A stretch of 64,000 bases of DNA, taken from contig DASXVJ010000023.1 in the NCBI GenBank assembly GCA_036504335.1, positions 144,389 to 208,388 on the forward strand. The letters are read 5' to 3'. The DNA comes from Thermoanaerobaculia bacterium (GTDB lineage: Bacteria > Acidobacteriota > Thermoanaerobaculia > UBA5066). Made by a program: the position numbers and the translations under genes. A model generated the notes under the pieces. It made no database searches, had not been told where the DNA came from, and saw only the letters and a list, made by a program, of their open reading frames with translations. Positions 30,582 to 60,510 of this stretch are shown piece after piece; the stretch's first letter is position 1; each line of letters begins with the position of its first letter.

Positions 30582-33227
30582 TTATGCGCCGAGGACGGTT
30601 TCGAGCCGCGTCACGCGCACGGCGTGCTGGCCCTCGGGCGGGACGCCGTATTCTTTCTCGAGGAATTTCTTCGGCGTCGTGGCGGTCGCTCCCATGAGCG
30701 AGAGGCGCTCTTCGCGCGTCTCGCCGTTCGGAAGCGTAAACGCGTAAACGGCCTCCGTCACGGCCCTTCCGAGCGACTTCGCGCCCTTCGGGAGCTCGAC
30801 AGAGGACGTGATCACGAGGCCCGGAGGGAGCCGGTCGTTCACGGCGGAGACGTGGGCGTCCGTCAGCGCGTCGAGGACGTCCACGTCGAAGAGCTCGTGT
30901 TTCGACTCGTGCCCGAGCGGAAGGGCCGGACCCATCGACAGGCGCAGGTGCGGGTTGTAGCCCTCCGTGTAACGCACGGGCGCGCCCGAGGCGCGCAACG
31001 CGCGCTCGAGGACGTCCATCGTGTTGCGGTGCGAGAGGTACCGCGCGTCGCCGAGCTTCTCGAACGAGAGGCGGTACGTCCGCGCGGACTCCGGCACGGG
31101 AGCCGCGACGCCGCTCGCGGGCGAGCGGCGCTCACGCAGCGGGAGAAGATCCGGCGTCGACTTCATGCGGTATGCCGCGCCCTTGGCTTTTTCGGTATAG
31201 GCGGAGGGGAGGGGAAAAGACTCTTCTGCTGAAGAAGAAGAGGGGAGAAGAGTTTCTTCGAGTGATTGTGAGGGCGATGCGCCCGCGCCCTGCGCAGGCG
31301 CGACGGGCAACGCCCCGCCGCCGAGGCTGCCTCTCTTACCTTCTAAGAAATCCGAATCCGAATCCGAAGCAAAATTGAATTCCTTCGGCAGCGGATTCGC
31401 GAGGACGATGTCCTCGCCGTTGCCCGGGACGCCGCAGGCGTAGCAGTGCCCCCACTTGCAGTCGTCCGTGTGCATCTCCTTGAGCGCCTTCTTCCACTCC
31501 ACGACGAGGAAGGGCTTGCGGATGGACGCGTCGACGACGTCCCAGGGGAGCGTCTCCTTGAGGTCCTTGTCGCGGAGGTGGCGGAACTTCGGGACGCCTG
31601 CGGCCTCGAGCGCCTCCGTCCAGCGCTCCCACGAGAAGTGCTCGCTCCACGCGTCGAAGCGTCCGCCCCTCTTCCACACGTCGAGGACGGCGCGGCCCAT
31701 CCGCCGGTCGCCGAGCGAGAGCATCGCCTCGATCTCGGCTTCCTTCGGCTCGTGCCACGTCATCTTCGCTCCCTTGACGGAGCGGAAACGGTCCTTCAGG
31801 TACGCGATCTTCCGCGAGAGGTTCTCGACGCCGTCGAACCCGAACCACTGGAAAGGCGTGAAGCTCTTCGGGATGAAGCAGCCGACCGAGACGTTCACCT
31901 GCGGTCTCACGCCGTGCCTGCGGCCCTGGGCGAGGATGTCCTTCACGAGCGTCACGAGCTCGTCGAGGTCCGGGTCGGTCTCCGTCGGGAGGCCGATCAT
32001 CGTGTAGACCTTGATCATGTCCCAGCCGCGCCCGAAGGCGACGTCGGCGGCCTGGACCATGTCGGCGTTCGTGAACGTCTTGTTGATGACGCGGCGGAGG
32101 CGGTCCGAGCCGGTTTCGGGCGCGAACGTGAAGCCGGACTTGCGCACCTCCGAGACGGCATCCGCGAGCGCGACGGAGAAGGCTTCGGCGCGGAGCGAGG
32201 GGAGGGAGATCGACACCTTCGTCTTCGCGAGCTCGGGCGCGAGGCACGCGACGAGCGGCTCGATCTGCGAGTAGTCCGCCGAGGAGAGCGAGAGGAGCCC
32301 GACCTCGCTCCAGCCCGCCTCGTCGATGAACGCCTTCGTCGCCTTCGCGACGTCGGCGGGGTCCAGCTCGCGCACGGGGCGGTACCAGTAGCCCGCCTGG
32401 CAGAACCGGCAACCCTGCGTGCAGCCGCGCATGATCTCGAGGCCGAGGCGGTCCTGGACGATGTCCACGGACGGGACCATGGGCTTTGCGGGATAGACGT
32501 CGGCCGAGAGCTTCTCCACCCAGACCCGCTTGACCTCTGCGGGAACTCCAGCCGTGTTCGGCGCGTACGCGGCGACACGATCCTCGTCATACGTCACGTC
32601 GTAGAGCGACGGGACGTAGATCCCCGGGCAGGCGGAGAACGCGAGGAGGCGCTCGCGGCGGGGGAGGCCCTTCGTCCGCGCGACGGCCCCGAGGAAAACG
32701 GGCAGCGCTTCCTCCGCGTCGCCGATCAAAAAGGCGTCGAAGAAATCGGCGAGGGGTTCGGGATTCGCGACGCAGGGGCCGCCGCCGATCACGACGGGGT
32801 GCGCGTCGCCGCGGTCCGCCGCGAGGACGGGGATCCCCGCGAGGTCGAGCATGTTCGGGACGTTCGTGTAGTTCATCTCGCTCTGGAGCGAGAGGCCGAA
32901 GACGTCGAAATCGCCCACGGGGGCGAAGGACTCGACGGAGAAGAGCGGGACCTTCTCCCGGCGCAGGACCGCCTCGAAGTCCGTCCACGGCGCGTACGTC
33001 CGCTCGCAGGCCCAGGCCGCGCGGCGGTTCACGATCTCATAGAGGATCTTCGTGCCCGTGTGGCTCATCCCGATCTCGTACGCGTCCGGGAAGCCGAGGC
33101 AGACCGTGACGTCCATCGCGCCGAGATCCTTGCGCACGACGTTCCGCTCCAGGCCGAGATAGCGCCCGGGGCGCTCGACGGCGAGGAGGAACGGCTCGAA
33201 GCGGGGGCGGACGGATGCGTAGCGCAA
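30582..33227 (-). CDS. Fused B12-binding radical SAM protein (TIGR03960-like) and DUF2344/TIGR03936-like C-terminal domain
   Basis: B12-binding N-terminus followed by a CxxxCxxC-type motif (CTQGCRFCQAGYWYRP). Ser/Asp/Glu-rich low-complexity linker. C-terminal DUF2344-like roughly 230 aa. TTG start at 33227 gives LRYASVRPRFEPFLLAVERPGRYLG, matching family N-termini; the upstream 290 aa of the track ORF are junk. Confidence 0.8.
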   Translation of the reverse strand: MRYASVRPRFEPFLLAVERPGRYLGLERNVVRKDLGAMDVTVCLGFPDAYEIGMSHTGTKILYEIVNRRAAWACERTYAPWTDFEAVLRREKVPLFSVESFAPVGDFDVFGLSLQSEMNYTNVPNMLDLAGIPVLAADRGDAHPVVIGGGPCVANPEPLADFFDAFLIGDAEEALPVFLGAVARTKGLPRRERLLAFSACPGIYVPSLYDVTYDEDRVAAYAPNTAGVPAEVKRVWVEKLSADVYPAKPMVPSVDIVQDRLGLEIMRGCTQGCRFCQAGYWYRPVRELDPADVAKATKAFIDEAGWSEVGLLSLSSADYSQIEPLVACLAPELAKTKVSISLPSLRAEAFSVALADAVSEVRKSGFTFAPETGSDRLRRVINKTFTNADMVQAADVAFGRGWDMIKVYTMIGLPTETDPDLDELVTLVKDILAQGRRHGVRPQVNVSVGCFIPKSFTPFQWFGFDGVENLSRKIAYLKDRFRSVKGAKMTWHEPKEAEIEAMLSLGDRRMGRAVLDVWKRGGRFDAWSEHFSWERWTEALEAAGVPKFRHLRDKDLKETLPWDVVDASIRKPFLVVEWKKALKEMHTDDCKWGHCYACGVPGNGEDIVLANPLPKEFNFASDSDSDFLEGKRGSLGGGALPVAPAQGAGASPSQSLEETLLPSSSSAEESFPLPSAYTEKAKGAAYRMKSTPDLLPLRERRSPASGVAAPVPESARTYRLSFEKLGDARYLSHRNTMDVLERALRASGAPVRYTEGYNPHLRLSMGPALPLGHESKHELFDVDVLDALTDAHVSAVNDRLPPGLVITSSVELPKGAKSLGRAVTEAVYAFTLPNGETREERLSLMGATATTPKKFLEKEYGVPPEGQHAVRVTRLETVLGA
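31333..31350. repeat. Copy (18/19) of the low-GC CTCTT(C)ACCTTCTAAGAAA motif
   Basis: ctcttaccttctaagaaa; encodes DFLEGKRG on the minus strand. Confidence 0.5.
31351..31368. repeat. Tandem hexamer (TCCGAA)x3 in the inter-domain linker, encoding SDSDSD
   Basis: Direct reading tccgaatccgaatccgaa. Confidence 0.6.
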
Positions 33228-33286
33228 GCGGGCTCTCCGAACGGGGCAGTCTAGCGGATCACCTGAGACGCTGTCGCGTGGCCGCG

Positions 33287-33919
33287 TCAGGCCGTCTTCA
33301 GGCCGACCGGGCAGGACACGCCCGTGCCGCCGATCCCGCAGTAGCCGTCGGGGTTCTTCGCGAGGTACTGCTGGTGATACTCCTCGGCGTAGTAGAAGGG
33401 CGGAGCGTCGAGGATTTCGGTCGTGATCGCGCCGTAGCCGGCCTCGGCGAGCTTCGCCGCGTACGCGGCCTTCGACGCCTCGGCGGCGGCCTTCTGCTGC
33501 GCGTCGAACGTGTAGATCCCGGAGCGGTACTGCGTGCCGGCGTCGTTGCCCTGGCGCATGCCCTGCGTCGGGTCGTGGCTCTCCCAGAAGATCCTCAGAA
33601 GACTCTCGTACGAGACCTGCGCCGGGTCGAAGGCGACGAGGACGACTTCGTTGTGACCCGTGCGTCCCGTGCACACCTCGCGATACGTCGGGTTCGGCGT
33701 GAGGCCCGCCGCGTACCCCGCCGCCGTCGTGAAGACGCCGGGCGTCTGCCAGAACTTTCTCTCCGCGCCCCAGAAGCAGCCGAGGCCGAAGAGCGCGATC
33801 TTCGTCCCGGCGGGGAACGGCGGCTCGAGCGGGTGCCCGTTGACGAAGTGCTTCGCCGGGACGGCCATCTTCTCCGCGCGTCCGGGGAGCGCATCTTCGG
33901 GGGTCGGCATGCGGAGCAT
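33287..33919 (-). CDS. msrA: Peptide-methionine (S)-S-oxide reductase
   Basis: GLGCFWGAE active site. Start trimmed to [14 protein letters not shown] to align with MsrA N-termini. Confidence 0.9.
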
Positions 33920-34014
33920 CTTTCCGGCGTAGAGCAAGGCCGTCGATTCTGCTCCTCGCGCGCGCGAAGGGGAAGATCCCCCCTCCGGCAAAACCGAACG
34001 TCCCGTTTCCCGCA

Positions 34015-34043
34015 TTGACTCGCCCCGGTGCTCGGCCTAGATT
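34015..34043 (+). promoter_or_regulatory. Sigma-70-type promoter, leaderless arrangement
   Basis: TTGACT (34015-20), 17-nt spacer, TAGATT (34038-43), then 8 nt to ATG 34052. Same geometry and the same -10 hexamer as the clpB promoter. Confidence 0.45.
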
Positions 34044-34051
34044 GCCGACCG

Positions 34052-34441
34052 ATGGCGCTCGACGAGAAACTCCGCGCGTATCTCCGCGAGCTCGGAGCCG
34101 CACTGAACGAGGCCGTGTCCTCGTCCGACAAGGTGCACGAGATTCTCGCGAAGGTGAAGAGCGAGGGCTACGGCGCGTATCTCTGTCTCGACGCGACCGT
34201 CGCGCTCGACAAGCGCGGGCGCCGCTCGTCGGCCGCGCTCCCGTCGATCCGCCGCGGCGGCCTCAACGCGTCGAAGGAAGAGCGGGAAGCGGGCGGCATG
34301 GATACGGCCGTCTTCCAGATCAACGTGAAGGACCTCGGCTTCCTGCGCTCCGTCGGAATCGACCCGACGCGCCCGGTCCGCGCGCGCCGGAATCCGCAGG
34401 CGGCCGTCACGATCCGGTCGACGGTCGCGAAACGCGGCTGA
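34052..34441 (+). CDS. Hypothetical protein (129 aa)
   Basis: High GC3 coding signature. Stop abuts the rlmN start. Confidence 0.45.
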   Translation: MALDEKLRAYLRELGAALNEAVSSSDKVHEILAKVKSEGYGAYLCLDATVALDKRGRRSSAALPSIRRGGLNASKEEREAGGMDTAVFQINVKDLGFLRSVGIDPTRPVRARRNPQAAVTIRSTVAKRG

Positions 34442-34443
34442 CG

Positions 34444-35538
34444 TTGCCCCCGCAGGATCTCCTCGGTCTCACCGCGCTCGACCTCGCGCGCGCCGTGCGC
34501 GACGTGGCGCCGGAGCCGTACCGCGCGGCCCAGATCGCGAAGTGGATCTACGAGCGCCGCGTGGCGAGCTTCGCCGAGATGTCCAACCTGCCGAAGTCGA
34601 TGCGCGAAGCCCTTGCGAAGGATTTCACGATCGGGCTCCCGAAGGTCGTCGCGCGGACCCCGGCGCCGGACGGCACCGAGAAGTTCCTGTTCGAGCTCGC
34701 GGACGGCGCGCGGGTGGAGGCCGTCTACATCGTCGAATCGAAGAAGAAGCCCTCCTGGACGGACCCCGACACGCCGGAAGCAGCGCGCGTCACGATCTGT
34801 CTCTCGTCCCAGGCCGGCTGCGCCGTGGACTGCGCGTTCTGCGTCACGGGCCGCATGGGCGCCGGCCGGAACCTCACGGCCGGGGAGATCGTCGGGCAGT
34901 ACCTCGTGATCGCGCGGGAGAAGGGCTTCGGGCCGCACGAGGCGAACGTGGTCTTCATGGGGATGGGAGAGCCGCTCCTGAACGTCGGAAACGTCAGGCG
35001 CACGCTCGACCTGCTCGAGGAGGAAGTCTCGCCGCGGCGGACGACCGTCTCGACCGCGGGCGTCGTCCCGGGCATCGAGGCGCTTGCCGCGCGCGCGCGC
35101 CGGCCGAACCTCGCGGTCTCCCTCTCGGGCGCGGACGACGAGACACGTTCGAAGCTCATGCCGATCAACCGGACGTACCCGATCGCGGAGCTCTTCGCCG
35201 CCCTCAAGCGCTGGCCGCTCGAGCGCGGGCGGAAGATCACGTTCGAGTGGGTCCTCATCGCGGGTGTGAACGACCGTCCCGAGGACGCCTCGAAGCTCGC
35301 CGCGCTCGTGAGACCTCTCCCGTCGAAGGTGAACCTCATCCCTCTCAACGAGTCGGAGGAGTGGCTGCCGGGGCTCAAGCGCCCGTCCGACGCGACCGTG
35401 GACGCGTTTGCGCGGGCCGTCGCGGCGGGCGGCGTGCCCGTGACGGTGCGCTGGTCGAAGGGCCTGCAGGCGGACGCGGCCTGCGGTCAGCTCAAGGGGC
35501 GTGAGACGCCCCGCCGCCCGGCGCCGCCGGCGCCTTGA
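34444..35538 (+). CDS. rlmN: 23S rRNA (adenine2503-C2)-methyltransferase, radical SAM
   Basis: CLSSQAGCAVDCAFC radical-SAM motif, GMGEPLLN, and the C-terminal Cys in WSKGLQADAACGQL. TTG start; N-terminus aligns with RlmN. Confidence 0.9.
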   Translation: MPPQDLLGLTALDLARAVRDVAPEPYRAAQIAKWIYERRVASFAEMSNLPKSMREALAKDFTIGLPKVVARTPAPDGTEKFLFELADGARVEAVYIVESKKKPSWTDPDTPEAARVTICLSSQAGCAVDCAFCVTGRMGAGRNLTAGEIVGQYLVIAREKGFGPHEANVVFMGMGEPLLNVGNVRRTLDLLEEEVSPRRTTVSTAGVVPGIEALAARARRPNLAVSLSGADDETRSKLMPINRTYPIAELFAALKRWPLERGRKITFEWVLIAGVNDRPEDASKLAALVRPLPSKVNLIPLNESEEWLPGLKRPSDATVDAFARAVAAGGVPVTVRWSKGLQADAACGQLKGRETPRRPAPPAP

Positions 35539-37534
35539 CCGGCGGCGCGGGTGCCGTCCCGAGGTAACGGTCCGTCCACTCGAGCAGCCGCGCGCGGATG
35601 TCCCTCACGTGCCTGGGCTCGGCCGGGCCGTGCGGCTCGCGCGCGTACGTCACCATCTCCACGGGCACGCCGCGCTTTTTCAGCGCGAGGTAAAGCTCGC
35701 GCCCCTGGGCGGGCGGCACGCGCGCGTCCGCCTCGCCGTGGAGGATGAGAGTCGGCGTCTTCGCGTTCTTCACGAACCACATCGGGCTGTGCGCCCTGAG
35801 GACGTCGAAGTCGTCCCACGGCATCGCGGCGAAGTAGCTCTCGATGAACTCGGGGATGTCCGCCGTGTAGTAGAAGCTCCAGAGGTCCGTGACGGGCGCG
35901 CCGGGCGAGACGAACCTGAAGCGGTCCGTGTGCGTGAGGATCCACGACGTCATGAAGCCGCCGTAGCTCCAGCCCATGACGCCCATGCGCGCGGGGTCGA
36001 CGGTTCCCTTCGCCACGAGCATGTCGACGCCCGCCATGAGGTCGAGATAGTCCTTGCCGCCCCAGTCGCGGGCGTTCGCCTTCTTGAACTTCTCGCCGTA
36101 GCCGCTGCTGCCGCGCGGGTTGACCTGGAGGACCGCGATGCCGCGCGCGACGAACGCGTCGATCGGGTAGATCCGCGAGAACGCCGAGTGGCTGAATGCG
36201 AAGCGGCCCGCGGGGCCTCCGTGGATGTTGAGCACGAACGGCAGCTTCACGGCCGGACGGTCGGGCGGCAGGTGGAGGAGGCCCTCGATCGGGAGGCCGT
36301 CGGGTCCCTTCCACGACACGACCTCGACCTTCGGCCGGAGCGCGCCCGCGACGGACGGGTTCGTCGCCGTGAGGCGCCGCGGCGCCGGCTTCGCGTCCGA
36401 CGGCGTGAGGACGTTCACGTCGGGCGGCTCCGCCGCGCTCTGGAGGACGAACGCGAGCGTCTTTCCGTCGCCGGCCGCCGTGAACGAGCCGAGGACGTGC
36501 GGGCCGGAGGTCAACGCCTTCGGAGCGCCGCCCGCGGCGGGCACGGAGAAGAGCTGCGTCGACATCCTCTGTTGCGCCGCGAAGAGAATCGACGCGGAAT
36601 CCGGCGTCCACGCGAAGTCGTCGGCCTCGAGGTCGGCGGCGCGCGTGAGGTTGCGCACGGGCCCGCCCGCCGCGGGAACGACGCAGATCTCGGTGCGGTG
36701 GCCGGGCCAGTCGTTCACGCGCCCGTCGCCGCTGAAGAACGCGACCCACTTCCCGTCGGGCGAGAACGCGGGGCTCGAGTCGGGCCCGGGCCGCTTCACG
36801 AGGTCCGAGGCCTTGCCGTTCTCCTTCGCCTCCCAGACGACGAGATCCGTGTTGAACCCGTCCGGCACCTTCGGCGTCGGCGCCACGGCGCCCACGAGGC
36901 GCGTGCCGTCGGGCGACCAATCGGCGGAGACCACGTGGCCGGAGCCGGAGGAGACGCGGACGACCGTCTTCGCCGCGACGTCCGCGATCCAGAGCGCCGC
37001 CGGTTTGACGTCGTCCCGATCGACGACGTTCGCGTCGTCCTTCTCCTCGCGCTTCTTCTTTTCGTCCGCTGCGGGCGGCACGGCGGCCGTGAAGGCGATC
37101 CGCCTCCCGTCGGGGCTCCACGTGAACGAGGCGACGGGGGAGCCGTGGCTCGTCAGGCGCGAGGCCTCGCCGCCGTTCGGGGCGATGAGCCAGACCTGGC
37201 GCGTCTCCTTTGCGTCCTTTTCGTCGCCGGCACGCCGTTCCGAGAGAAACGCGATCGTCTTCCCGTCCGGGGAGAAGCGCGGCCGCTCGTCGCGCTTCGG
37301 CGAGGCCGTCAGCTTGCGCGAGGCGCTCGTCGCGACGTCCACGAGCCACACGTCCGTGTCGAGGAGGTTCTCCTTGAAGTCCCAGGCGCCGACGACGTAC
37401 GCGACCGACTTCCCGTCGGGCGCGATCTGCGCGTCCGAGACCGTCTTCAACGCGAACAGGTCCGCGGCGGGTGGAGTCTGGGCGAGCGCGAATCCGGAGC
37501 ACGCGAGGACGAAAACGGCGGCGGCACGGCGCAT
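35492..37534 (-). CDS. S9-family serine peptidase (prolyl oligopeptidase/acylaminoacyl-peptidase type) with N-terminal beta-propeller
   Basis: Signal peptide, TolB-like propeller repeats (SPDGK), catalytic GWSYGG. 3' end overlaps rlmN by 47 bp (convergent). Confidence 0.85.
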   Translation of the reverse strand: MRRAAAVFVLACSGFALAQTPPAADLFALKTVSDAQIAPDGKSVAYVVGAWDFKENLLDTDVWLVDVATSASRKLTASPKRDERPRFSPDGKTIAFLSERRAGDEKDAKETRQVWLIAPNGGEASRLTSHGSPVASFTWSPDGRRIAFTAAVPPAADEKKKREEKDDANVVDRDDVKPAALWIADVAAKTVVRVSSGSGHVVSADWSPDGTRLVGAVAPTPKVPDGFNTDLVVWEAKENGKASDLVKRPGPDSSPAFSPDGKWVAFFSGDGRVNDWPGHRTEICVVPAAGGPVRNLTRAADLEADDFAWTPDSASILFAAQQRMSTQLFSVPAAGGAPKALTSGPHVLGSFTAAGDGKTLAFVLQSAAEPPDVNVLTPSDAKPAPRRLTATNPSVAGALRPKVEVVSWKGPDGLPIEGLLHLPPDRPAVKLPFVLNIHGGPAGRFAFSHSAFSRIYPIDAFVARGIAVLQVNPRGSSGYGEKFKKANARDWGGKDYLDLMAGVDMLVAKGTVDPARMGVMGWSYGGFMTSWILTHTDRFRFVSPGAPVTDLWSFYYTADIPEFIESYFAAMPWDDFDVLRAHSPMWFVKNAKTPTLILHGEADARVPPAQGRELYLALKKRGVPVEMVTYAREPHGPAEPRHVRDIRARLLEWTDRYLGTAPAPPVKAPAAPGGGASHAP

Positions 37535-37568
37535 GGAGCCTCCTGCGGACGAAGTGCGACGAAGGGTA

Positions 37569-38330
37569 TCAGGTGGGAAGGCGCACGACGCCGGTGAGAA
37601 TGCGCCCCGCCCCCGGCCCGTCCCGCCGCCACGACGGCAGATCGTGCGCTACGGCGTTGCAGAGGCCGGGCCGGCGGATCCGCGCGGGGTCGAGGCCGCG
37701 GGCGAGCAGCGCCGCCTCGTTGAACGCCGCGACGTCCACGAAGGCCTTGCCGCCCGCGCCGGCCGCGACTGCGCCCTCCGGCGCGGCGCCGTAGGCGTCG
37801 AGGAGCGCCGCGACGACCTCGGGGCCGACCTCGTACCGGTCGCGCGCGATCGAGGGGCCGAAGGCGGCGGAGAGGCCCCGCAGGGCGACGCCGCGGGCCT
37901 CGAGCGCGTCGAGGGCCGCGTCGAGGACGCGGAGCGCCGTGCCCCGCCACCCGGCGTGGATCGCGGCCATCCAGCCCGTCGCGGGATCGGCGAGGACGAT
38001 CGGGACGCAGTCGGCGGAGGCGACGGCGAGGAGGACGTTTGGCTGGCTGGCCGTGAGCACGTCTCCATCTTCGAGGAGGGTGTGCCCGCGCTTGCGCGCG
38101 GGTGCTTCGAAGGTAAGAACACGCGAGCCGTGCACCTGCACGAGCCTCACGACTTCCGCCCCCGGCGCGCCGAGCGCTTCGGCGAGGGCGCGGCCGGCGA
38201 GATCGGGCGAAAGCGATCGGGCTGTCAACGCGCCGCGCGTGAAACCCGCAACGAACCCTGGTGCGCCGGGCAAGGACAGCCGCGAAACCGCGCCGGCCAG
38301 GGTCGTGTGCGCGGCCGGATGCCCATCCAC
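37569..38330 (-). CDS. pgeF: Peptidoglycan editing factor PgeF (YfiH/laccase-domain protein)
   Basis: SADCVPIVL and HAGWRGT motifs of the Cu-oxidase_4/YfiH family. Confidence 0.85.
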   Translation of the reverse strand: MDGHPAAHTTLAGAVSRLSLPGAPGFVAGFTRGALTARSLSPDLAGRALAEALGAPGAEVVRLVQVHGSRVLTFEAPARKRGHTLLEDGDVLTASQPNVLLAVASADCVPIVLADPATGWMAAIHAGWRGTALRVLDAALDALEARGVALRGLSAAFGPSIARDRYEVGPEVVAALLDAYGAAPEGAVAAGAGGKAFVDVAAFNEAALLARGLDPARIRRPGLCNAVAHDLPSWRRDGPGAGRILTGVVRLPT

Positions 38331-38391
38331 GTGTCCATTCTAGGAAATCTTCTTCTTTCTCTTTTCTTTCCCCCTCTAGAATCCCCGCGTC

Positions 38392-38997
38392 TTGAAGAAC
38401 GCGACGCTTCGCCTCCCACGCTCTCTGCGGTCGCCCGCCGCGATCCAGCGCTTCCTCGACGGCCTCCGCTACAACAAGGAGAAGGACGGCGAGACGGCGC
38501 GTTCCCCACGCCGCGTTCTCGAGACGAAAGAGGCGCACTGCTTCGAGGGCGCGCTCTTCGCGGCGGCGGCGCTTCGCCGGCTCGGGCACCCGCCGCTCGT
38601 CGCCCAGCTCCACGCCGTGCGCGACGACGACCACGTCCTCGCGCTCTTCCGGGAGCGGCCCGGCGCGGGGTGCTGGGGCGCGGTCGCGAAGTCGAACTAC
38701 TCGGGCCTGCGCTTCCGCTCGCCGGTCTACCGCTCGCTGCGCGAGCTCGCCATGAGCTACTTCGACAGCTACTACAACCTCGAGGGCGAAAAGAGCCTCC
38801 GGTGCTTCGGGCGGCCCGTCGACCTCGCGCGCTTCGACGCCCGCGGCTGGGAGACGGCGAGAGAAGACCTCTGGGACGTCTCGACGCACGTCGCGACGCG
38901 CCGTTTCACTCCCCTCGTGAGCGCCGCGCAGGCGCGGCGCCTGCCGCCGATGGACCGGCGCCTCTTCGACGCCGGTCTCGTCGGGCGGCGCGTCTAG
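38392..38997 (+). CDS. Hypothetical protein with putative Cys-His-Asp hydrolase triad (transglutaminase/papain-like fold?)
   Basis: 201 aa; EAHCFEGAL...DDHVLALF. TTG start. Overlaps the TBDR 3' end by 4 bp. Confidence 0.5.
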   Translation: MKNATLRLPRSLRSPAAIQRFLDGLRYNKEKDGETARSPRRVLETKEAHCFEGALFAAAALRRLGHPPLVAQLHAVRDDDHVLALFRERPGAGCWGAVAKSNYSGLRFRSPVYRSLRELAMSYFDSYYNLEGEKSLRCFGRPVDLARFDARGWETAREDLWDVSTHVATRRFTPLVSAAQARRLPPMDRRLFDAGLVGRRV

Positions 38998-41645: not shown

Positions 41646-41723
41646 GAATCTCTCCTCCCGGAAAGTAAAAAGAGGCCCGGCACCGGATAATTGAAGCGAC
41701 TCTGTCGCAGATAGCGCCGCGGG

Positions 41724-43148
41724 TCAAGGGGCGTGCGGCGCGCCCCCCGCCCCCGCGATCGCGTTCGCGTAGTACCGGAGGAGCGGCAGCTCCGCGGCGA
41801 CGGGCCGGAAGAGACCGCCGTCCGCGAGGACGACGTGCCGGAGCATGAGCGCCCTGAGGCCGACGGACACGGCGTAGTCCTGGTCGCCGCGCGGCACGTG
41901 GACGTATGCGCCCCCGGCTTCGAGAGCGCGCCAGCGGGCGAGGACCTCGGACTTCAGCTCGAGCTCGCTCCACGCCCGCTCCGGCGCGTCGACGAGGACG
42001 CTCGCGACGAGCGAGACGGGCAGGACCGGAATCACGCGCGCGATCCGCTCCATGAGGTCCTTCGCGAGGCCCTCGACGGCGGCGAACCGCGCCTCCCGCG
42101 AGACGGTCCCGAGGTCGAGGTCCTTCCGTGCGAGCCACTCCCGCGTCGACACAGGAGACCCGAAGCTCACGCAGGCATAGCCGAAGCGGCGCCACTCGTT
42201 CGCGATCACGAGGCGCGCGTTGCGCCGGACGAAGCGGAGCGTCTCGGCGAGGGTGTCGGCCGGAGAGGCTTTGCCCTGCGCCGGGGAGCGGTCGAGGAGG
42301 AGCGTGCGGTCTTCGAGGACGCGGTCGTAGTTGACTCCGACCGGGATGAAGACGAGATCGCGCGGACCCTTCGGGTCGAAGCCGCGGAGCATGTAGTCGA
42401 GGAGGCCGAGCTTCGGGGGGCGCAGCGCGCCGTCCTTCGAGAGCCCGCCCTCGGGGTAGACGGCCTGCGGAACGCCGTTCGCCGTGGCCATCGCGACCCA
42501 GCGCTCGAGGACGCGCCGGTAGAGCGGATCCTTCGAGTCGCGCCGCACGAAGTACGCGCCGGTCGCCCGCAGGAATCCCTGGATGGGCCAGATCCGCGCC
42601 CATTCGCCGACGGCGTAGCTGAGAGCCGTCTTCTCGGCCGCCAGGTACGAGAGGAGGAAGTAGTCCATGTTGCTCCGGTGGTTCATGACGAAGACCACCG
42701 TCGAGCCGTCGGGGATCGCCCGCAGGCCGGCGTCGTCCGCCGTGCCGAGGCGCACGCGGTAGAGCGAGCGCGCGACCGCGCGGGCGATCGCGTAACCCGC
42801 GCGAAAGTAGATCCACGCGTTGAAGGCCGGGACGATCTCCCGCGCGTCGCGGTCGACGCGTTTCTGCACTTCGTCGCGGGAGAGGCCCGACTCCTTCGCG
42901 AACGCGTCGGCGGCCTCGAGGACCTTGAGGTCGAAGCGGAGCTGGTCCACGAGAACCTCGCGCTTCGTCATCTTGAACGGCGGGAGGCGCACGGGGAGGC
43001 GCGCGTTCAGCTCGTCGATGACGCGGTTCGCGCGGCGGCGCATCACGGCGCGGGCGGCGGGGCGGAGCAGCCGGTCGAGAACCGCCCAGCCCGCGAGAGA
43101 TGCGAGCAGGACGAAGGCCCAGAGCGGGACTGCGACGGAGGAGGACAT
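41724..43148 (-). CDS. Acyltransferase (PlsC/LPLAT family, HxxxxD) with C-terminal extension
   Basis: Motif VFVMNHRSNMDYFLL (H-x4-D). Confidence 0.7.
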   Translation of the reverse strand: MSSSVAVPLWAFVLLASLAGWAVLDRLLRPAARAVMRRRANRVIDELNARLPVRLPPFKMTKREVLVDQLRFDLKVLEAADAFAKESGLSRDEVQKRVDRDAREIVPAFNAWIYFRAGYAIARAVARSLYRVRLGTADDAGLRAIPDGSTVVFVMNHRSNMDYFLLSYLAAEKTALSYAVGEWARIWPIQGFLRATGAYFVRRDSKDPLYRRVLERWVAMATANGVPQAVYPEGGLSKDGALRPPKLGLLDYMLRGFDPKGPRDLVFIPVGVNYDRVLEDRTLLLDRSPAQGKASPADTLAETLRFVRRNARLVIANEWRRFGYACVSFGSPVSTREWLARKDLDLGTVSREARFAAVEGLAKDLMERIARVIPVLPVSLVASVLVDAPERAWSELELKSEVLARWRALEAGGAYVHVPRGDQDYAVSVGLRALMLRHVVLADGGLFRPVAAELPLLRYYANAIAGAGGAPHAP

Positions 43149-43204
43149 CGGAATTTTCTCCGAAGATTAAGGCATGAGAGCCGAAGCGAGGTCTAATCGC
43201 CTCC

Positions 43205-48159: not shown

Positions 48160-48178
48160 TCGGGAACCTCCGATCCTT

Positions 48179-48206: not shown

Positions 48207-48254
48207 GCGGGCGGATGCTACATTCCCGCCCCCGACAGGGCAGACAGGAACCCA

Positions 48255-49931: not shown

Positions 49932-49942
49932 AATCCGGGCGA

Positions 49943-51175: not shown

Positions 51176-51184
51176 CGCGGCCGC

Positions 51185-54805: not shown

Positions 54806-55710
54806 CAGTCTCCGACGACGTCCTTCAGCGCGGGGAGGACGTCCTTGAAGCGGAACGTGAACCCGAGGCCGAGGGCTTTCCGGGGGACGACGCGCTGGCC
54901 GTCGAGGACGACCGTCGCCATCTCGCCGAGCGCGAGCCGGATCGCGGCGGCGGGGGCCTTCGCGAAGCTCGGGCGGTGGAGCGCGCGGCCGAGAGCGGTC
55001 GCGAAGTCGCGCATCGTGACGGGGTTCGGCGCCGTCGCGTTGACGGGGCCGGCGACCGCGGGGTTCTCGACGGTCCAGAGGTACATCTCGACGAGGTCGG
55101 CCTGGTGAATCCACGACATCCACTGCCGGCCGCTGCCGAGCGGACCGCCGACGAACGCCTTGAACGGCGGGAGCATCTTCGCGAGGGCGCCTCCGCCGGC
55201 GCCGAGGACGACCCCCGTCCGCAGCATCGCGACCCTCGTGCCGAGCGGCTCGAAGGCGCGCGCGGCGGCCTCCCACTCGACGCACAGGCGTGCGAGGAAG
55301 TCGTCGCCGGGGGACGCGCTCTCGTCGAGGATCTCGTCGCCGCGCGGGCCGTAGAAGCCGACCGCCGACGCGTTCACGAGGACCGCGGGCTTCTGCGCGG
55401 CCTTCTCGGCGGCCGCCTTCAGGCGCGCGGCGGCGTTGAGGCGGCTCGTCGCGATGCGCTCCTTGGCCGCGGCGGTCCAGCGCTGGGCGATCGTCTCTCC
55501 GGCGAGGTTCACGAGGGCGCCGGCGCCGTCGACGAAGCCCTCCCACGCCGCGCCTTCCGCCCACGAGACGACGCGGACCTTCGGATGCACGTGGTCGCGC
55601 GAGCGCGACGCGTCGCGTGTGAGGGCGATCACGTCGTGACCCTTCGCGACGAGACGCTCGCACAGCTTCGGCCCGATGAAGCCGGTTCCACCGGTGACGA
55701 TGACGCGCAT
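54805..55710 (-). CDS. yfcH: TIGR01777/YfcH-family NAD-dependent epimerase (DUF1731)
   Basis: VTGGTGFIG Rossmann motif and C-terminal DUF1731. Confidence 0.8.
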   Translation of the reverse strand: MRVIVTGGTGFIGPKLCERLVAKGHDVIALTRDASRSRDHVHPKVRVVSWAEGAAWEGFVDGAGALVNLAGETIAQRWTAAAKERIATSRLNAAARLKAAAEKAAQKPAVLVNASAVGFYGPRGDEILDESASPGDDFLARLCVEWEAAARAFEPLGTRVAMLRTGVVLGAGGGALAKMLPPFKAFVGGPLGSGRQWMSWIHQADLVEMYLWTVENPAVAGPVNATAPNPVTMRDFATALGRALHRPSFAKAPAAAIRLALGEMATVVLDGQRVVPRKALGLGFTFRFKDVLPALKDVVGD

Positions 55711-55775
55711 CCGCTCTCCTTGTCCCCCGATCGTACCGAAATCGGACGGGCCGGGAGCGCCGTATCCTTTCGGGG

Positions 55776-56660
55776 GTGAGAGTTGTCCGCCGAGCCGCCG
55801 CCGCCGGATTCGCCGTCGCGCTTGCCGCGGGGCCAGCGGGCGCGTCCGACGTGGATCCGGTCGAGCTGATCCGGCGGGTCGTGAGGAGCCAGCGGCGAGT
55901 CGAGGCCGTCTTCGAGGGCGTGACGTTCGACCAGCGCGAGGTCCAGATCACGTGGGGGGCGAAGGGCCGCCCGGAGAAGGTCGAATCGCGCCTCTTCTAC
56001 GTCTTCGCCGGCGAGAACGGCGCGGAGGGCTCCCGCGAGCTCGTCGAGGTCGACGGCCGCCCGGCGACGGAGGACGAAAAGAGAAAGGCCGCCGAGCGGG
56101 ACGAAAAGAGCCGGAAGCGGCGCGTCGAGGAGAAGGCCGAGGCGGCGGCGAAGGCCCCGCCGCGCATAGCCGGCGACGAGGACGACCCGCTCGTCGGCTC
56201 GCGCCGGCTCTCGGAGCTCATCGGCCGGTATACGATCCGGCTCGTGGGCGAAGAGGTCATCGAGGGGCGGCTCGCCTACGTCCTCGACTTCTCCCCGAGC
56301 CCCACGGCCCCGGCTCCGAAGGGGCTCGGCGACCGCGCGCTGAACGCCCTCGAGGGCCGCGCCGTGATCGACGCCTCCACGTTCCAGGTCCGGTCGGTCG
56401 AGGCCCGCCTGACCCGGCCCCTGAAGGTCGCCGGGGGCCTCGCCGCGAACGTGAAGGACGCGGACGTGTCGTACACGGGCCAGCCCGCCGGGGGCGGCCT
56501 CTGGTTCCCGTGCGCCGTGGACTTCCGCGTGACCGGCAAGACCGCGCTCTTCTTCCGTCTCGACACGTCGTTCCGGGCGACGTTCACGAACCTGAGGCGT
56601 TTCAACGTCGAAACCGAAACGGACGTCCGCCCGGAGGCGGACGCCGGGAGCACACCATGA
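55776..56660 (+). CDS. Secreted hypothetical protein (LolA-like fold?)
   Basis: Signal peptide AAAGFAVALAAGPAGA. Charged KR/E-rich insert in the middle. GTG start. Confidence 0.5.
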   Translation: MRVVRRAAAAGFAVALAAGPAGASDVDPVELIRRVVRSQRRVEAVFEGVTFDQREVQITWGAKGRPEKVESRLFYVFAGENGAEGSRELVEVDGRPATEDEKRKAAERDEKSRKRRVEEKAEAAAKAPPRIAGDEDDPLVGSRRLSELIGRYTIRLVGEEVIEGRLAYVLDFSPSPTAPAPKGLGDRALNALEGRAVIDASTFQVRSVEARLTRPLKVAGGLAANVKDADVSYTGQPAGGGLWFPCAVDFRVTGKTALFFRLDTSFRATFTNLRRFNVETETDVRPEADAGSTP

Positions 56661-57229
56661 CCCCTTCCCGCCGCCGCTCCGTTCTCCTCGCCGCCGGCGC
56701 ATTCGTCGCCGCCGCCATGGGTTACGCCTACTGGCTCTCGCTCACGCCGGCCACGCACCCGGACCACGACCACGGGATCCTGAACCTCGACGCGGGGGGA
56801 CGCCTCGTCGTCGAGACGCGCGACGGAAAGAGCCGCAACCTCGTCGGAAAGCCGGGCCATGCGCTCGTGCTGCACTTCTTCTCGACGGCGGCGCCCGGCG
56901 CCTCCGACGAGCTCGCGGGAATCTTCCTCCAGCAGGAGGCGCTCAAGGGCGACACGAGCGTCGAGTTCGTCCTCATCGCGCGCGAGAAGGATTTCGCTGC
57001 CCTGGACGCGTGGCTCAAGGAGAAAAGCCTCGTGCCGCCGTTCCCGCAGACGCTCGTGCTCGACCCATCGGGCGACGCGACGATGAAGCTCAACTCGAAG
57101 CGGCCGAGCGAGACGATGTTTTTCGCGGCCGACGGCAAGCTCGCGTCGCAGGCGCGCGGCTCGCTCCGCTGGCCCGACGGCGCCGCCCCGCACCTCGCGA
57201 AGGCGCGGAGCGGCGAGGCGATCGAGTAG
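56657..57229 (+). CDS. Thioredoxin-fold (TlpA/redoxin-like) protein lacking the CxxC motif
   Basis: N-terminal TM anchor. HALVLHFFSTAAPGASDE aligns with the WCxxC region, with Cys replaced by S/A. ATG overlaps the upstream stop (ATGA). Confidence 0.5.
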   Translation: MTPSRRRSVLLAAGAFVAAAMGYAYWLSLTPATHPDHDHGILNLDAGGRLVVETRDGKSRNLVGKPGHALVLHFFSTAAPGASDELAGIFLQQEALKGDTSVEFVLIAREKDFAALDAWLKEKSLVPPFPQTLVLDPSGDATMKLNSKRPSETMFFAADGKLASQARGSLRWPDGAAPHLAKARSGEAIE

Positions 57230-57232
57230 CGG

Positions 57233-57706
57233 CTACTTCTTGGCCGGCGCGGGGTCGTCCGACGCCTGGTCGGAGACGTACTTCCAGGAGCCGTCCTTCT
57301 GCTGGGCGGCGACCGCGCACCACCTCCCGACCTCCGTCGTCGGCGCGCCGCCGGCCTTCGGCACCGTCGTGATCTTGAAGGCACCCCAGCCCGCCGACAC
57401 CTTGCCGGACGACCGGTAGTGGTTGTCCATCACGGCGGCTTCCGTCACCTTGACTTCCTTGAGCCAGCCCGCGTAGGCGTCCGCAATCGCCTTCTTGCCC
57501 TTGATCGCGCCGCTCCCGGGAAGGACGAGGACGGCGTCGTCGGCGTAGAGCGCGGCGCACGCCGCCGCGTCGTTGGCGAGCATCGCCTTCGTCCACGCGC
57601 TGTCCAGGGTCATCAGTCCGTGCCTGGGCGCCTCGTCGGCCGCCAGGGCGGGACCGGCCGCGAGAGCCACGCACGCGAGAAAACACGCCAGGATCGTCTT
57701 CTTCAT
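57233..57706 (-). CDS. Secreted SnoaL/NTF2-like (DUF4440-type) protein
   Basis: Signal peptide. Roughly 130-aa alpha+beta cone fold pattern (LYADDAVLVLPG...GKKAI). Confidence 0.55.
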   Translation of the reverse strand: MKKTILACFLACVALAAGPALAADEAPRHGLMTLDSAWTKAMLANDAAACAALYADDAVLVLPGSGAIKGKKAIADAYAGWLKEVKVTEAAVMDNHYRSSGKVSAGWGAFKITTVPKAGGAPTTEVGRWCAVAAQQKDGSWKYVSDQASDDPAPAKK

Positions 57707-57754
57707 GGATTCTCCTTCCGTCTTCGGTTGGGACGGAGATTCTATCTCAGCGAA
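57707..57754 (-). promoter_or_regulatory. Stem-loop sequestering the Shine-Dalgarno of the SnoaL-like gene
   Basis: Plus strand TCCGTC (57715-20)...GACGGA with a 10-nt loop. The left arm is the reverse complement of the GGAAGGAG Shine-Dalgarno. Confidence 0.3.
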
Positions 57755-58642
57755 TCAGCGTCGCGACTCGCCGAGCGTGATCAGGACGACGGCCCCGACG
57801 ATCACGGCGGCGGCGACGAGCGTCCGCGTCGAGACCGGCTCGGCGGCGAGGAGCCAGCCCAGGAACACGGCGACGACCGGGTTCACGAACGCGTACGTCG
57901 AGACGAGCGCCGGCGAGGCGGCGCGCAGCAGCCAGATGTACGCCGTGAACGCGACGAGCGAGCCGAAGACGACGAGGTAGGCGACGGCCGCGAGCGACCG
58001 GCCCGAGACGAGGGAGGGCGAGAAGCGCGCCCACTCGCCCGCGAACCCGGAGGCGCCGCCGAGGAGGGCGCCGCCCGCGAGCATCTGAAGGGCGGTCGCC
58101 TGGAGCGGCGACGCGGACGGCTGGAAGTGGCGCGAGAGGAGGGAGCCGAGCGCCCACGCGAAGGCCGCGAACAGGACGGCCGCGGCGCCCCCGAGGTCCA
58201 CGCGCTCGCCCCCGAGGCCGGCCGGCCCCACGAGGAGAACGACGCCGATGACCCCGAGCGCGACGCCGAAGAGAGCGCGGCCGGACGGACGCCGCCGCTC
58301 CTGGGGGAGCGTCGCCTGCAGGAGCACGATGAAGAGCGGCTCGACGGCGACGAGGAGGGCCGCGAGGCCGGAGGCGATCCGCAGCTCGGCCCAGACGACG
58401 CCGCCGTTGCCGCAGAGGAGCATGAGCCCGCCGGTCAGGAAGGCCGGGCCGAGGTCGCGAAGGGCGATGCGCGGCGCGCCGCGATATTTCACCCATGCGA
58501 GGAGGAGGCTGCCGGCCACGAGGTACCTCGCCGACGCCATCGTGAACGGCGGAATCGTCTCGAGGGCCCAGCGGATCGCGAGATACGTCGAGCCCCAGAC
58601 GACGTAGATGACGAGGAGCGCGGGGGCGACGCCGCGTTTCAC
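57755..58642 (-). CDS. EamA/DMT-superfamily transporter
   Basis: Ten TM helices in two EamA repeats. Confidence 0.8.
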   Translation of the reverse strand: MKRGVAPALLVIYVVWGSTYLAIRWALETIPPFTMASARYLVAGSLLLAWVKYRGAPRIALRDLGPAFLTGGLMLLCGNGGVVWAELRIASGLAALLVAVEPLFIVLLQATLPQERRRPSGRALFGVALGVIGVVLLVGPAGLGGERVDLGGAAAVLFAAFAWALGSLLSRHFQPSASPLQATALQMLAGGALLGGASGFAGEWARFSPSLVSGRSLAAVAYLVVFGSLVAFTAYIWLLRAASPALVSTYAFVNPVVAVFLGWLLAAEPVSTRTLVAAAVIVGAVVLITLGESRR

Positions 58643-60510
58643 GGGGCGATCATCGCCTCCCAGACCGCGCGGGACATCTTCCGCGCCGCGGCGTTGACGC
58701 GCTCGCGGCCCGTTTCGTTCGCACCGAAGTCGTTCGCGAGGAGGACGAGGACGTACTCCCGCCCGTCCGGCAGGCGGACGACTGCGGCGTCGTGCTGGAC
58801 GGACGAGATCGAGCCCGTCTTGTGCGCGACGACGGCGCCCGACTGCGGGTGCAGGCCGGCCGGAATCTCCTCGTTGAACGTCTGGCCGATCAGGATCTCC
58901 CAGGCCTTCGCCTTCGCGGCCGCCGAGAGCTTCGGCGTCCGGACGACGGCTTCCATGACGGCGCCCATCCCCGCGGCGTCCGTTTCGTTGTTCATGCCCT
59001 TCTCGAACGCCCTGGTGTCCTCGACGCAGCGCCGCACGTGGACGGTCGGCGCCCCGAGCGTGTCCGTGAACCTCTGGACCTCGGCGGGGCCGAGAAGCGT
59101 CAGGAGGATGTTCGTCGCGAGATTCGACGAGCGGACGATCATCTCCCGCGCGAGGAACTCGAGCGTGGCCGTCTTTCCGGCGCGCGCGACCGTCGGACCG
59201 TCGTTGTCCTCGAGGCCGATCGAGAACGGCGAGCCGTCCACGAGGCTCCTGAACTCGTTCTTCACGGGCAGCTCGTCCGCGAGCTTAAGCGACCCCTCGT
59301 CGACTCGCCGGAGCAGCTCGAGGAGGACGGGCGTCTTCATCGTGGACGCGGCGTGCATGACCAGAGAGGGATTCTGCGAAACCGAGAGACCCGTCGAGAG
59401 GTCTTTGAACCAGATGCCGAAGCGCGCCCCGCTGGCGCGAGAGATTTCTTCGAGTGTGGATTCGAGCCGGCGCACCTTCGCGGCGTCGAGACGCGCCCCG
59501 AAGCCCTCTTCACCTTCTAAGAAAGTCTTCTCCTTCTCTTTCTTCAATCTCCTCGCGTACCGGAACAGAGGCTTCAGGAACGGGCTGTCGTAGGGCGTGA
59601 TCTGCACGCCCGGCACGTTGTGCCGCGTGGATTGCAGCACGGTCCCGTCGCCGATCCACATGGCCTCGTGGTCGATCTTGTCCTCGGTGCCGAAGAAGAG
59701 GAGGTCGCCGGGCCGGAGCTTCTCGAACGCGACGGGTACGAGCTGCGGGTCCTGGAACGCCTGCTCGAAGCTGTTGCGCCGAAGGGTGACGCCGTGCTCC
59801 GAGAAGATCCGCGTCATGAGCCCCGAGCAGTCGAAGCCGAGAGGCGTCGTCCCGCCCCACGTGTAGGGCGCGCCGAGGAAGCGCTTGCCGAACGCGATCC
59901 AGTCGGAGGGGGACTTGAGAGGAAGAGAAGACGAAGATTCTTTGAAAGGGAAGATGGAGACGTCGCGCGCGGCGACCCAGCCCCTGCGCCCGTCCGGAAG
60001 AAGCGCCCTCACCCAGGAATACGCGCCGCTGGCCCCGCGCTCTTCACCTTCTAAGAAACCTCCGACTTCCAGCGTCACACCGACCGGAGCCGTGAGAAGC
60101 GGCTTCTGCTTCGTGAACGAGGGCGACGAATAGATGTGCGCGAAGGTCGAAGAAACACGTACCACTTTCGCATGCTGGGGTAGCGCCTGCGCGCCGTCAT
60201 CTCGACGGATCGCCCGTTCAGGAATCCAAGCCACCTCCCCCGCGGCGGTCCTCACTTTCGCAAAGCCGGCCGCGTCCTCGAGGACCGTCACGCGGTCGCC
60301 CAGGATCGCCTGGTCGTCCACGCTCGACGTCTCGTCGGGTCTCACGAAGAGGTCCTGGACCGCCGCGACGACGATGGCCGTCTTCGCAGGTGCGGGTGTC
60401 GCGCCGGGAGATGCGGAGAGAGAGTTTTCTTCGAATGAGAAGAGAAGAAGGGCCGCGGCGAGCGCGCGAATGGCGGAGGTGCGGCGAACGGGGTTTCCTT
60501 CGAGGCGCAT
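58639..60510 (-). CDS. Secreted SH3b-SH3b-NlpC/P60 (YkfC-like) endopeptidase fused to a C-terminal class-A beta-lactamase-like serine hydrolase domain
   Basis: Two SH3b domains. NlpC/P60 catalytic FDCSGLMTRIF...H. C-terminal SxxK (ASTMK), SxN (SSN) and KTG (HKTGS) motifs. Confidence 0.8.
   Translation of the reverse strand: MRLEGNPVRRTSAIRALAAALLLFSFEENSLSASPGATPAPAKTAIVVAAVQDLFVRPDETSSVDDQAILGDRVTVLEDAAGFAKVRTAAGEVAWIPERAIRRDDGAQALPQHAKVVRVSSTFAHIYSSPSFTKQKPLLTAPVGVTLEVGGFLEGEERGASGAYSWVRALLPDGRRGWVAARDVSIFPFKESSSSLPLKSPSDWIAFGKRFLGAPYTWGGTTPLGFDCSGLMTRIFSEHGVTLRRNSFEQAFQDPQLVPVAFEKLRPGDLLFFGTEDKIDHEAMWIGDGTVLQSTRHNVPGVQITPYDSPFLKPLFRYARRLKKEKEKTFLEGEEGFGARLDAAKVRRLESTLEEISRASGARFGIWFKDLSTGLSVSQNPSLVMHAASTMKTPVLLELLRRVDEGSLKLADELPVKNEFRSLVDGSPFSIGLEDNDGPTVARAGKTATLEFLAREMIVRSSNLATNILLTLLGPAEVQRFTDTLGAPTVHVRRCVEDTRAFEKGMNNETDAAGMGAVMEAVVRTPKLSAAAKAKAWEILIGQTFNEEIPAGLHPQSGAVVAHKTGSISSVQHDAAVVRLPDGREYVLVLLANDFGANETGRERVNAAARKMSRAVWEAMIAP
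59506..59524. repeat. Low-GC 19-mer CTCTTCACCTTCTAAGAAA, copy 1
   Basis: Identical to 60030..60048. Encodes TFLEGEEG in the NlpC/P60-to-beta-lactamase linker. Confidence 0.6.
60030..60048. repeat. Low-GC 19-mer CTCTTCACCTTCTAAGAAA, copy 2
   Basis: Identical to 59506..59524. Encodes GFLEGEER between the SH3b domains. Confidence 0.6.

Follow-up and report, generated by a model that had tools for sequence, protein, structure and literature searches.

An AT-rich DNA word that recurs in unrelated genes of a 64,000-nucleotide stretch of a Thermoanaerobaculia genome (assembly GCA_036504335.1, contig DASXVJ010000023.1, positions 144,389 to 208,388; hereafter the window) belongs to a previously undescribed repeat. 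The analysis establishes a class-wide, interspersed repeat that acts at the level of DNA and works as a convergent doublet, that is, two copies of the word in opposite orientation that face each other across a short spacer. Full-text literature searches for its core sequence returned unrelated eukaryotic primers only, with no bacterial mention; literature searches on repeats in Thermoanaerobaculia, or on uptake sequences in Acidobacteria, yielded nothing relevant, and an Rfam search of ten doublet-rich loci matched no family. We favour, with about an even chance of being right, a recognition signal that persists through selection or drive, with an architecture like that of repetitive extragenic palindromic (REP) elements and bacterial interspersed mosaic elements (BIMEs) and, in coding regions, the behaviour of an uptake sequence.

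The 19-mer CTCTTCACCTTCTAAGAAA is present exactly twice in the window, at 59506–59524 and 60040–60058. Both copies lie in the open reading frame (ORF) 58639–60567 on the minus strand, which encodes an SH3b, NlpC/P60 and class-A beta-lactamase-like protein. A sequence-only reading of the window had already assigned two identical copies to this gene; the first was placed correctly, while the second, given as 60030–60048, requires a shift of 10 nt. The same reading had noted the low GC content of the word, which amounts to 7 of 19 nucleotides (37%) within DNA of 70% GC. On the coding strand, both copies read TTC TTA GAA GGT GAA GAG (FLEGEE). Among the 21 confident genes of the window, TTA makes up 0.1% of leucine codons, GGT 3.9% of glycine codons, and GAA 14.6% of glutamate codons, and the codon choice of the motif is therefore extraordinary. 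Two further copies were also as described: one that is a base shorter, at 31333–31350 in the linker of a radical-SAM (rSAM)/DUF2344 gene (reading CTCTTACCTTCTAAGAAA), and a diverged one at 8786–8804 in truA (CTCTTACCCTCTCAGAAAA). The latter scores 6.8 bits alone and is validated by a canonical copy at the same codons in an orthologue. The translations FLEGEER, FLEGEEG, and FLEGKRG for the minus-strand copies and PLLPSQK for truA are likewise correct; the three minus-strand copies occupy two genes, not three. Five additional degenerate copies are found in the same genes (60414–60445, 59920–59960, 59437–59463, 31245–31272, and 8654–8679), and the window holds in total four doublets, all in convergent order, and one single copy. 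Chance recurrence is indeed negligible, as had been proposed, with zero matches expected in 100 dinucleotide-preserving shuffles.

An exact scan for the 19-mer, using one genome per species from GTDB (596 Gb), gave at least 108 matching loci, where around four chance matches would be expected. Among the matches listed, 106 of 108 loci come from at least 26 Thermoanaerobaculia/Acidobacteriota metagenome-assembled genomes (MAGs), with up to 11 exact 19-mers on one 3.67-Mb contig. The two loci outside the lineage, L037 and L041 (L-numbers denote loci carrying motif matches, mostly fragments of 8–22 kb and 0.86 Mb in total), are AT-rich and belong to an Aquifex MAG and an unclassified MAG; in both, the 19-mer encodes EEFLEGEE, a PurD-like ATP-grasp peptide. 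Viral contigs contributed a single match, L116 (42% GC), which encodes only FLEGEE. These three matches are coincidences of peptide and composition and stand outside the repeat family.

A profile built from the copies, spanning −20 to +6 around the 19-mer and applied with a cut-off of at least 10 bits, produced 300 matches in the 0.86 Mb of fragments versus 3 in a reversed-sequence control. At distances of more than 400 nt from the selected copies, there were 105 matches in 703 kb, which is equivalent to one per 6.7 kb, falling to one per 12 kb at 14 bits; hundreds of copies per genome is thus an extrapolation from fragments. Unbiased DNA (701 kb) contained 20 exact copies of the 12-mer core TTTCTTAGAAGG (one per 35 kb; control 0), along with 58 variants one base removed (control 4) and 80 two bases removed (control 26). 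The sequence-only reading would have given way had orthologues all carried the same residues with normal codon usage and the motif lacked enrichment; instead, enrichment across the lineage is strong, and orthologues keep the motif's abnormal codons.

The 19-mer is the most highly conserved portion of this repeat. Each arm consists, from 5′ to 3′, of a purine-rich tail, the core TTTCTTAGAAGG, a more variable TGAAGAG, and then GG. When oriented as TTTCTTAGAAGGTGAAGAG, the 5′ flank is purine-rich for about 20 nt, often as (GAAGAG)n or (GGATTC)n, and the 3′ flank begins GG(G/C). In a convergent doublet, the GAAGAG ends face each other across 40–130 nt of unrelated DNA of normal GC content, and the order of purine-rich arm, spacer, and pyrimidine-rich arm is therefore identical on either strand. 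This order is strict: fuzzy matches no more than 400 nt apart comprise 58 pairs in the '+-' order and 6 in the '-+' order, profile matches no more than 200 nt apart comprise 63 and 1, respectively, and clusters without an exact copy 28 and 1. The gap between 19-mers is mostly 42–61 nt, with a tail to around 160 nt, and the median distance between profile matches is 71 nt. Spacers are as GC-rich as the rest of the genome, are unrelated between non-orthologous copies even within one genome, and in predicted folds are no more structured than shuffled sequence; the arms themselves are predicted to pair over 10–18 bp in nearly all doublets. Units occur between tandem, convergent, and divergent genes, with most adjoining gene ends, and 24 clusters lie inside single ORFs, of which 13 are doublets. 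Single copies show no preferred orientation (68 versus 64), and an arm taken singly, tail included, has no better predicted fold than shuffled sequence (z −0.04 to −0.8). In 78 of 124 single copies the tail side adjoins coding sequence, on either gene strand. The non-tail side shows no codon periodicity and has a dip in GC content at +60 to +160, as it would if a degenerate partner lay there.

The outer tails include hexamer microsatellites of variable length, as in (GGATTC)3 at window positions 31351–31369 (encoding SDSDSD) and in L008, L054, and L064, with up to nine GAA in a run elsewhere. This variability suggests replication slippage beside the arms.

Within the gene for the SH3b, NlpC/P60 and beta-lactamase-like protein, all five low-GC patches are motif copies, with alternating orientations. 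The copy at 60036–60073 (minus strand; 27.7 bits), which contains the exact 19-mer at 60040–60058, is sense to the gene, contributes the residues GGFLEGEER to a loop in the second SH3b domain, and forms the high-coordinate arm of one doublet. Its partner is a degenerate antisense copy at 59920–59960 (plus strand; 7.3 bits) that encodes FPFKESSSSLP and whose orthologous positions score 15.3 bits in L113 (10597–10621) and 15.5 bits in L115 (10562–10589). The spacer of about 78 nt corresponds to ancestral strands of the second SH3b domain, with the Pfam family SH3_YKFC_2nd matching over residues 184–206. A second doublet has one arm in the linker between the NlpC/P60 and beta-lactamase domains. 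This arm, at 59503–59554 (minus strand; 27.6 bits), joins the exact 19-mer at 59506–59524 to a purine-rich tail and encodes KKEKEKTFLEGEEG; a spacer of about 40 nt separates it from the degenerate antisense copy GCGAGAGATTTCTTCGAGTGTGGATTC at 59437–59463 (plus strand; 7.3 bits), for which the orthologous position in L113 (11146–11177) scores 14.3 bits. The fifth copy, at 60414–60445 (plus strand; 14.8 bits), is single and antisense, with three mismatches to the 19-mer at 60426–60444. The copy and its pyrimidine-rich tail jointly account for LLLFSFEEN, where the signal peptide ends; the copy is missing from some orthologues, with L111 lacking nine codons there, and the length of the SH3 loop also differs among orthologues.

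The pyrimidine tails of antisense copies (window 60414–60450; L098 4435–4566) encode runs of leucine, phenylalanine, and serine, and these runs make up the hydrophobic core, or the end, of signal peptides predicted there; the repeat may be a source of linkers or of segments resembling signal peptides.

The orthologues of this gene show that the motif acts at the nucleic-acid level and that its conservation exceeds what neutrality would predict. The window at site 59506 reads GAGAAGAC-TTTCTTAGAA-GGTGAAGAG, translated as KT-FLEGEE, and L109 and L115 read GAGAAGA-TTTCTTCGAATGG(T/G)AAAGAG, translated as K-ISSNGKE; this is the same DNA in another frame, reached by two compensating 1-nt indels. At site 60040, orthologues keep DFLEG(E/K)E together with TTC TTn GAA GGT. 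In a codon alignment of eight orthologues with 69%–86% protein identity, A or T third positions were kept in 68% of cases within the five patches and 22% outside them (Mann–Whitney p = 5e-10). No blocks of a divergent intergenic region common to three species are better conserved than the arms. Either strand and any of three reading frames can carry the motif, which is also present between genes. The canonical motif has six frames, three of which carry a stop codon; the open frames FLEGEE, SSPSKK, and LHLLRN are all used inside ORFs, and a TTCGAA variant opens the remaining ones. Inside genes, the motif is shown to take the frame that happens to be open: it lies in loops and linkers, or compatible ancestral residues are recoded to form it. 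Frame switches, occurrence on both strands and between genes, use of the rarest codons, and enrichment in the lineage all agree with the original view of a DNA-level element as opposed to a selected peptide.

A third doublet fills the entire linker of the rSAM/DUF2344 gene (ORF 30582–34103, minus strand). One arm, at 31333–31369 (minus strand; 14.6 bits), comprises the near-exact copy CTCTTACCTTCTAAGAAA at 31333–31350 and a (GGATTC)3 tail; it encodes SDSDSDFLEGKRG, and an orthologue (L017) carries the exact 19-mer. A GC-rich spacer of 60 nt (31273–31332) leads to the other arm at 31214–31272 (plus strand), in which a purine-rich tail precedes the degenerate copy GAGAAGAGTTTCTTCGAGTGATTGTGAG. 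This arm is weak alone (4.6 bits), its low score being backed by the convergent geometry.

The fourth doublet, in truA, has arms at 8654–8679 (plus strand; 8.9 bits), with the codons GAG ATT TCT TTG AAT GAA ATA (ELEISLNEI), and at 8786–8815 (minus strand; 6.8 bits), with CCC CTC TTA CCC TCT CAG AAA ATC CCC (PLLPSQKIP); the copy at 8786–8804 lies on the opposite strand of its gene. The AT-rich codons of the first arm are kept in three orthologues. At the codons of the second, L119 carries the canonical CCCCTCTTACCTTCTAAGAAAATCCCA (PLLPSKKIP; 17.5 bits), and L117 has a one-base-shifted version of the same DNA that is read PSISFEGIR. The 107-nt spacer encodes the catalytic segment GRTDSGVHA. Compared with the TruA proteins of Thermus and E. 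coli (1VS3 and 1DJ0), the arms are ungapped or differ by 3 aa: ELEISLNEI aligns without gaps to GELERALPGIG in Thermus and EKLEKALSQVA in E. coli, occupying an ancestral helix with no gain in length, and the right arm overlies IPVEKVPEALN.

The same relation to ancestral sequence is found in ispE and alr. In ispE, the exact 19-mer (IDFLEGEEG) sits over ISIELRDDG of E. coli IspE, and an antisense arm about 120–130 nt downstream, ATT CAC CTT TCT AAG ARA ATC CCC (IHLSK(K/R)IP), lies over its GHMP-kinase motif ISIDKRLPVGGG. The doublet is seen in three species. In alr (alanine racemase), copy 2 (AAG ATT TTC CTC GAA GGT GTA TTC) lies over the conserved LILEGIYSHF, and copies 1–3 differ by 0–3 residues in length from PDB homologues; copy 4 (SSPSKKSSS) is a loop insertion of 8–9 residues. 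Recoding at compatible ancestral residues can therefore yield whole convergent doublets, and transposition alone cannot explain arms that bring no change in length. Of the origins offered by the sequence-only reading, a recognition site or conversion-like maintenance is a better fit than a mini-insertion, given that several coding copies replace ancestral residues at unchanged length.

Under the recognition signal that we favour, sequence-specific host machinery would recognise the repeat, and selection or molecular drive would keep it genome-wide, as with REP/BIME elements or DNA-uptake sequences; coding copies would then be a tolerated by-product, and we infer that copying of whole doublets occurs as a minor route. 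The abundance of the motif and its restriction to one lineage, the 63:1 excess of the '+-' order, the rarity of the codons, the frame switches, the kept A or T third positions, the strong conservation of the arms, and the in-situ origin of coding copies all support this reading. Several points weigh against it. No recognising protein or process has been identified for the repeat. Its density is 5–10 times below that of known uptake sequences, all density estimates coming from the 8–22-kb fragments and not from whole genomes, and the copies are very degenerate (20 exact cores to 58 and 80 with one and two changes). One pair of paralogous doublets at L098, and the presence or absence of one whole doublet at an orthologous site, point to some mobility or duplication. 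Differences between the arms of a doublet comprise 96 transversions and 77 transitions, so complementarity is not clearly maintained, and an excess of G·U-compatible wobble changes on the sense strand is weak (47 versus 30) and swamped by the 96 transversions; a mechanism that reads the hairpin is therefore not demonstrated. A more specific form of the idea is tentative and falls clearly short of an even chance: that Thermoanaerobaculia possess a hitherto unrecognised genome-wide signal system, with dedicated machinery that would favour convergent TTTCTTAGAAGG-type doublets strongly enough for them to be recoded into housekeeping genes. Possible roles of such machinery are DNA uptake and the organisation or topology of the chromosome; it could also be an enzyme specific for hairpins.

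[quoted passage not shown] A hairpin-forming unit of about 100 nt would be copied in trans by a transposase, for example one of the Y1 type, including REP-associated tyrosine transposases (RAYTs), which acts on single-stranded hairpins; gene copies would be in-frame insertions tolerated in loops, and single copies would be decayed doublets. The likeness to REP/BIME elements and REPINs is considerable: a short unit with hundreds of copies per genome mostly at gene boundaries, inverted doublets with a preferred spacing, arms that are better conserved than the spacer, single copies resembling decayed doublets, and long vertical persistence. There are also direct signs of copying. At L098, two doublets 2 kb apart flank an S9 peptidase gene and are about 90% identical over the unit of around 100 nt, with unrelated flanks; they also match L064, the sole exception to the rule that spacers are alike only at orthologous loci. 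Furthermore, a whole doublet present in L107 and L100 is missing from the orthologous spacer of L031, and some coding copies do add length (copy 4 of alr, and the variable SH3 loops).

Nevertheless, in truA, ispE, and alr the arms stand in place of ancestral residues at unchanged length and flank ancestral catalytic segments, spacers are dissimilar among non-orthologous copies, and the arms are conserved well beyond spacer and flanks; thus, pure transposition of the REPIN, MITE, or RPE kind is insufficient. In contrast to REP/BIME elements and REPINs, the arms are low in GC and not self-palindromic, an arm by itself lacks a hairpin, the spacer may consist of ancestral coding sequence, many copies lie within ORFs, and one arm sequence is common to at least 26 species-level genomes. 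A REPIN replicates as a whole doublet, whereas spacer similarity is confined here to orthologous loci apart from the L098 pair. The inverted arms recall MITEs, yet interiors are unrelated and no clear target-site duplication was seen at the one empty site examined, in L031. RPEs (Ogata et al. 2000, as reviewed in PMC10969869) are likewise palindromic interspersed repeats lying in frame at permissive positions of unrelated housekeeping genes; however, they insert as whole units of 100–150 bp with conserved interiors and add a peptide segment, in contrast to the many arms here that overwrite ancestral residues and enclose host sequence (0–3 aa difference for truA, ispE, and alr copies 1–3).

No RAYT gene was found flanking the repeat in the 0.86 Mb of fragments. 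A tblastn search of these with E. coli YafM gave one Y1-like ORF, in L070, which is flanked by other repeats. This ORF (5707–6687; 320 aa) resembles IS200/Y1 transposases, with the HUH motif GNHYHLLLE and a long C-terminal extension, and is bracketed by perfect 19-bp inverted repeats GGTCTGTGTTATGTGTTAT that are unrelated to the motif and unique among 115 loci.

A strict DNA uptake signal of the Neisseriaceae/Pasteurellaceae type is a good deal less probable. Here, competent cells would prefer DNA bearing the motif, recombination would spread motif-improving mutations, and copies would build up where the sequence permits them and, close to the ends of genes, as inverted pairs. The resemblance to DNA uptake sequences and uptake signal sequences (DUS/USS), as set out in PMC2817400 and in bioRxiv 10.1101/2025.10.24.684340, extends to an over-represented motif confined to one clade and common to many of its species, occurrence on both strands, in-situ accumulation at permissive or compatible codons in stop-free frames, conservation at the DNA level, and inverted pairs in intergenic DNA; the near-equal orientations of single copies agree with it too. 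The densities differ, however: PMC2817400 gives 1,471, 765, and 1,892 copies in genomes of about 2 Mb, roughly one per kb, compared with one copy per 7–12 kb and one exact core per 35 kb here, a density around ten times lower, with copies that are much more degenerate. Recognition of single sites also does not predict convergent doublets with 40–130-nt spacers inside ORFs (13 of the 24 clusters), nor are doublets confined to terminators, as they also lie in divergent promoter regions; the purine-rich microsatellite tails of the arms are a further difference, and competence is not established in Thermoanaerobaculia. A single-site uptake signal hence explains in-situ accumulation and clade restriction, but not the low density or the doublet rule in ORFs.

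Slightly less probable again is a hairpin with a host function in RNA, which could be termination, the stabilisation or processing of mRNA, or the pausing of translation. Transcribed arms would pair with each other, and the convergent order would give the same hairpin whichever strand is transcribed, which suits the predicted arm pairing, the strict '+-' order with its constant arm polarity, the position of most units beside gene ends, the canonical terminator hairpins in a few spacers (L022, L051, and L060), and the weak G·U-compatible excess. A purely structural hairpin is weakened by the differences between arms, as transversions are the commonest and pairing is not visibly selected; spacers no more structured than shuffled sequence and the lack of an Rfam match in the loci searched also count against an RNA element. 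An intrinsic terminator in particular is not supported: the arms have no U-run, a terminator scan made no call at the L117 doublet, and strong hairpins within housekeeping ORFs and a divergent promoter region are hard to reconcile with termination.

A selected peptide (FLEGEE), or a chance product of low-complexity coding, has a negligible probability: EEFLEGEE is a genuine PurD-type ATP-grasp peptide that accounts for the non-lineage and viral matches, and almost every orthologue retains DFLEG(E/K)E at site 60040, but the frame-switch alignments at site 59506 and in truA contradict it. The same DNA is read as FLEGEE, ISSNGKE, SSPSKK, or LHLLRN; copies also lie between genes, the rarest codons are used and kept, and shuffled sequence gives zero expected matches.

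Other candidates were tried and rejected. A conserved interior, as in a MITE or a small RNA, is contradicted by spacers that are unrelated and no more structured than shuffled sequence. A scar of gene fusion, with an intergenic doublet now read through, fails for the SH3, truA, and ispE doublets, in which the spacers encode segments of ancestral domains. Integron attC sites do not fit copies dispersed over housekeeping genes and ordinary intergenic DNA. As to an invertible segment (an inverton, which may be intragenic), orthologous spacers in the few species pairs compared matched in the same orientation only, save for one palindromic terminator, and no inversion of the spacer between orthologues was seen; a spacer of 40–60 bp is short for synapsis by a recombinase.

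Very few lineages are known to have sequence-specific forces that reshape whole genomes; the cases are the uptake sequences of two proteobacterial families, REP elements and REPINs (mainly in Proteobacteria), and HIP1 of cyanobacteria. HIP1, an 8-bp, GC-rich, perfect palindrome that occurs singly, is a word over-represented throughout its lineage. The present motif shares with it short length, lineage-wide over-representation, presence in coding regions, conservation beyond expectation, and a function that is not known, and differs as an asymmetric, AT-rich word of 12–19 nt arranged in spaced inverted doublets. An uncultured, high-GC acidobacterial class thus shows a clear and easily scored signal of this type in at least 26 species-level genomes, one so strong that conserved residues in enzymes such as IspE, TruA, and alanine racemase have had to take the rarest codons. 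The factor behind the recognition of motifs of this kind, and the choice between selection and drive in their upkeep, come within reach of direct tests. The motif also explains the low-GC patches and odd linkers of these MAGs and could serve as a lineage marker in metagenomes. Should the reading of a dedicated signal system be true, this would be the first molecular drive of the uptake-signal kind outside Proteobacteria, or a new class of doublet signal without a described counterpart; that the underlying mechanism is itself new has a real chance, though one well below even.

Part of the motif, CTTAGAA..GGTGA, may resemble the complement of a bacterial 16S rRNA 3′ end together with the initial bases of the spacer (TCACCTCCTTTCTAAG), apart from four absent bases. 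In the rSAM/DUF2344 gene, the N-terminal stretch of about 300 codons (window 33200–34103) looks non-coding, with Pfam matches starting from near 33050, and the true start of the radical-SAM gene is probably around 33100–33200. Elsewhere in the window, weaker profile matches lie at 5696–5721, 5831–5843, 7856–7875, 38338–38359, and 43137–43171, some of them convergent and about 110 nt apart. The match at 38338–38359 (minus strand; GAAAGAAGAAGATTTCCTAGAA) is intergenic and scores 8.5 bits (E 0.15), and that at 43137–43171 (plus strand; 10.1 bits, E 0.05) lies just upstream of an ORF starting near 43178; these weak matches may be decayed copies of the repeat.

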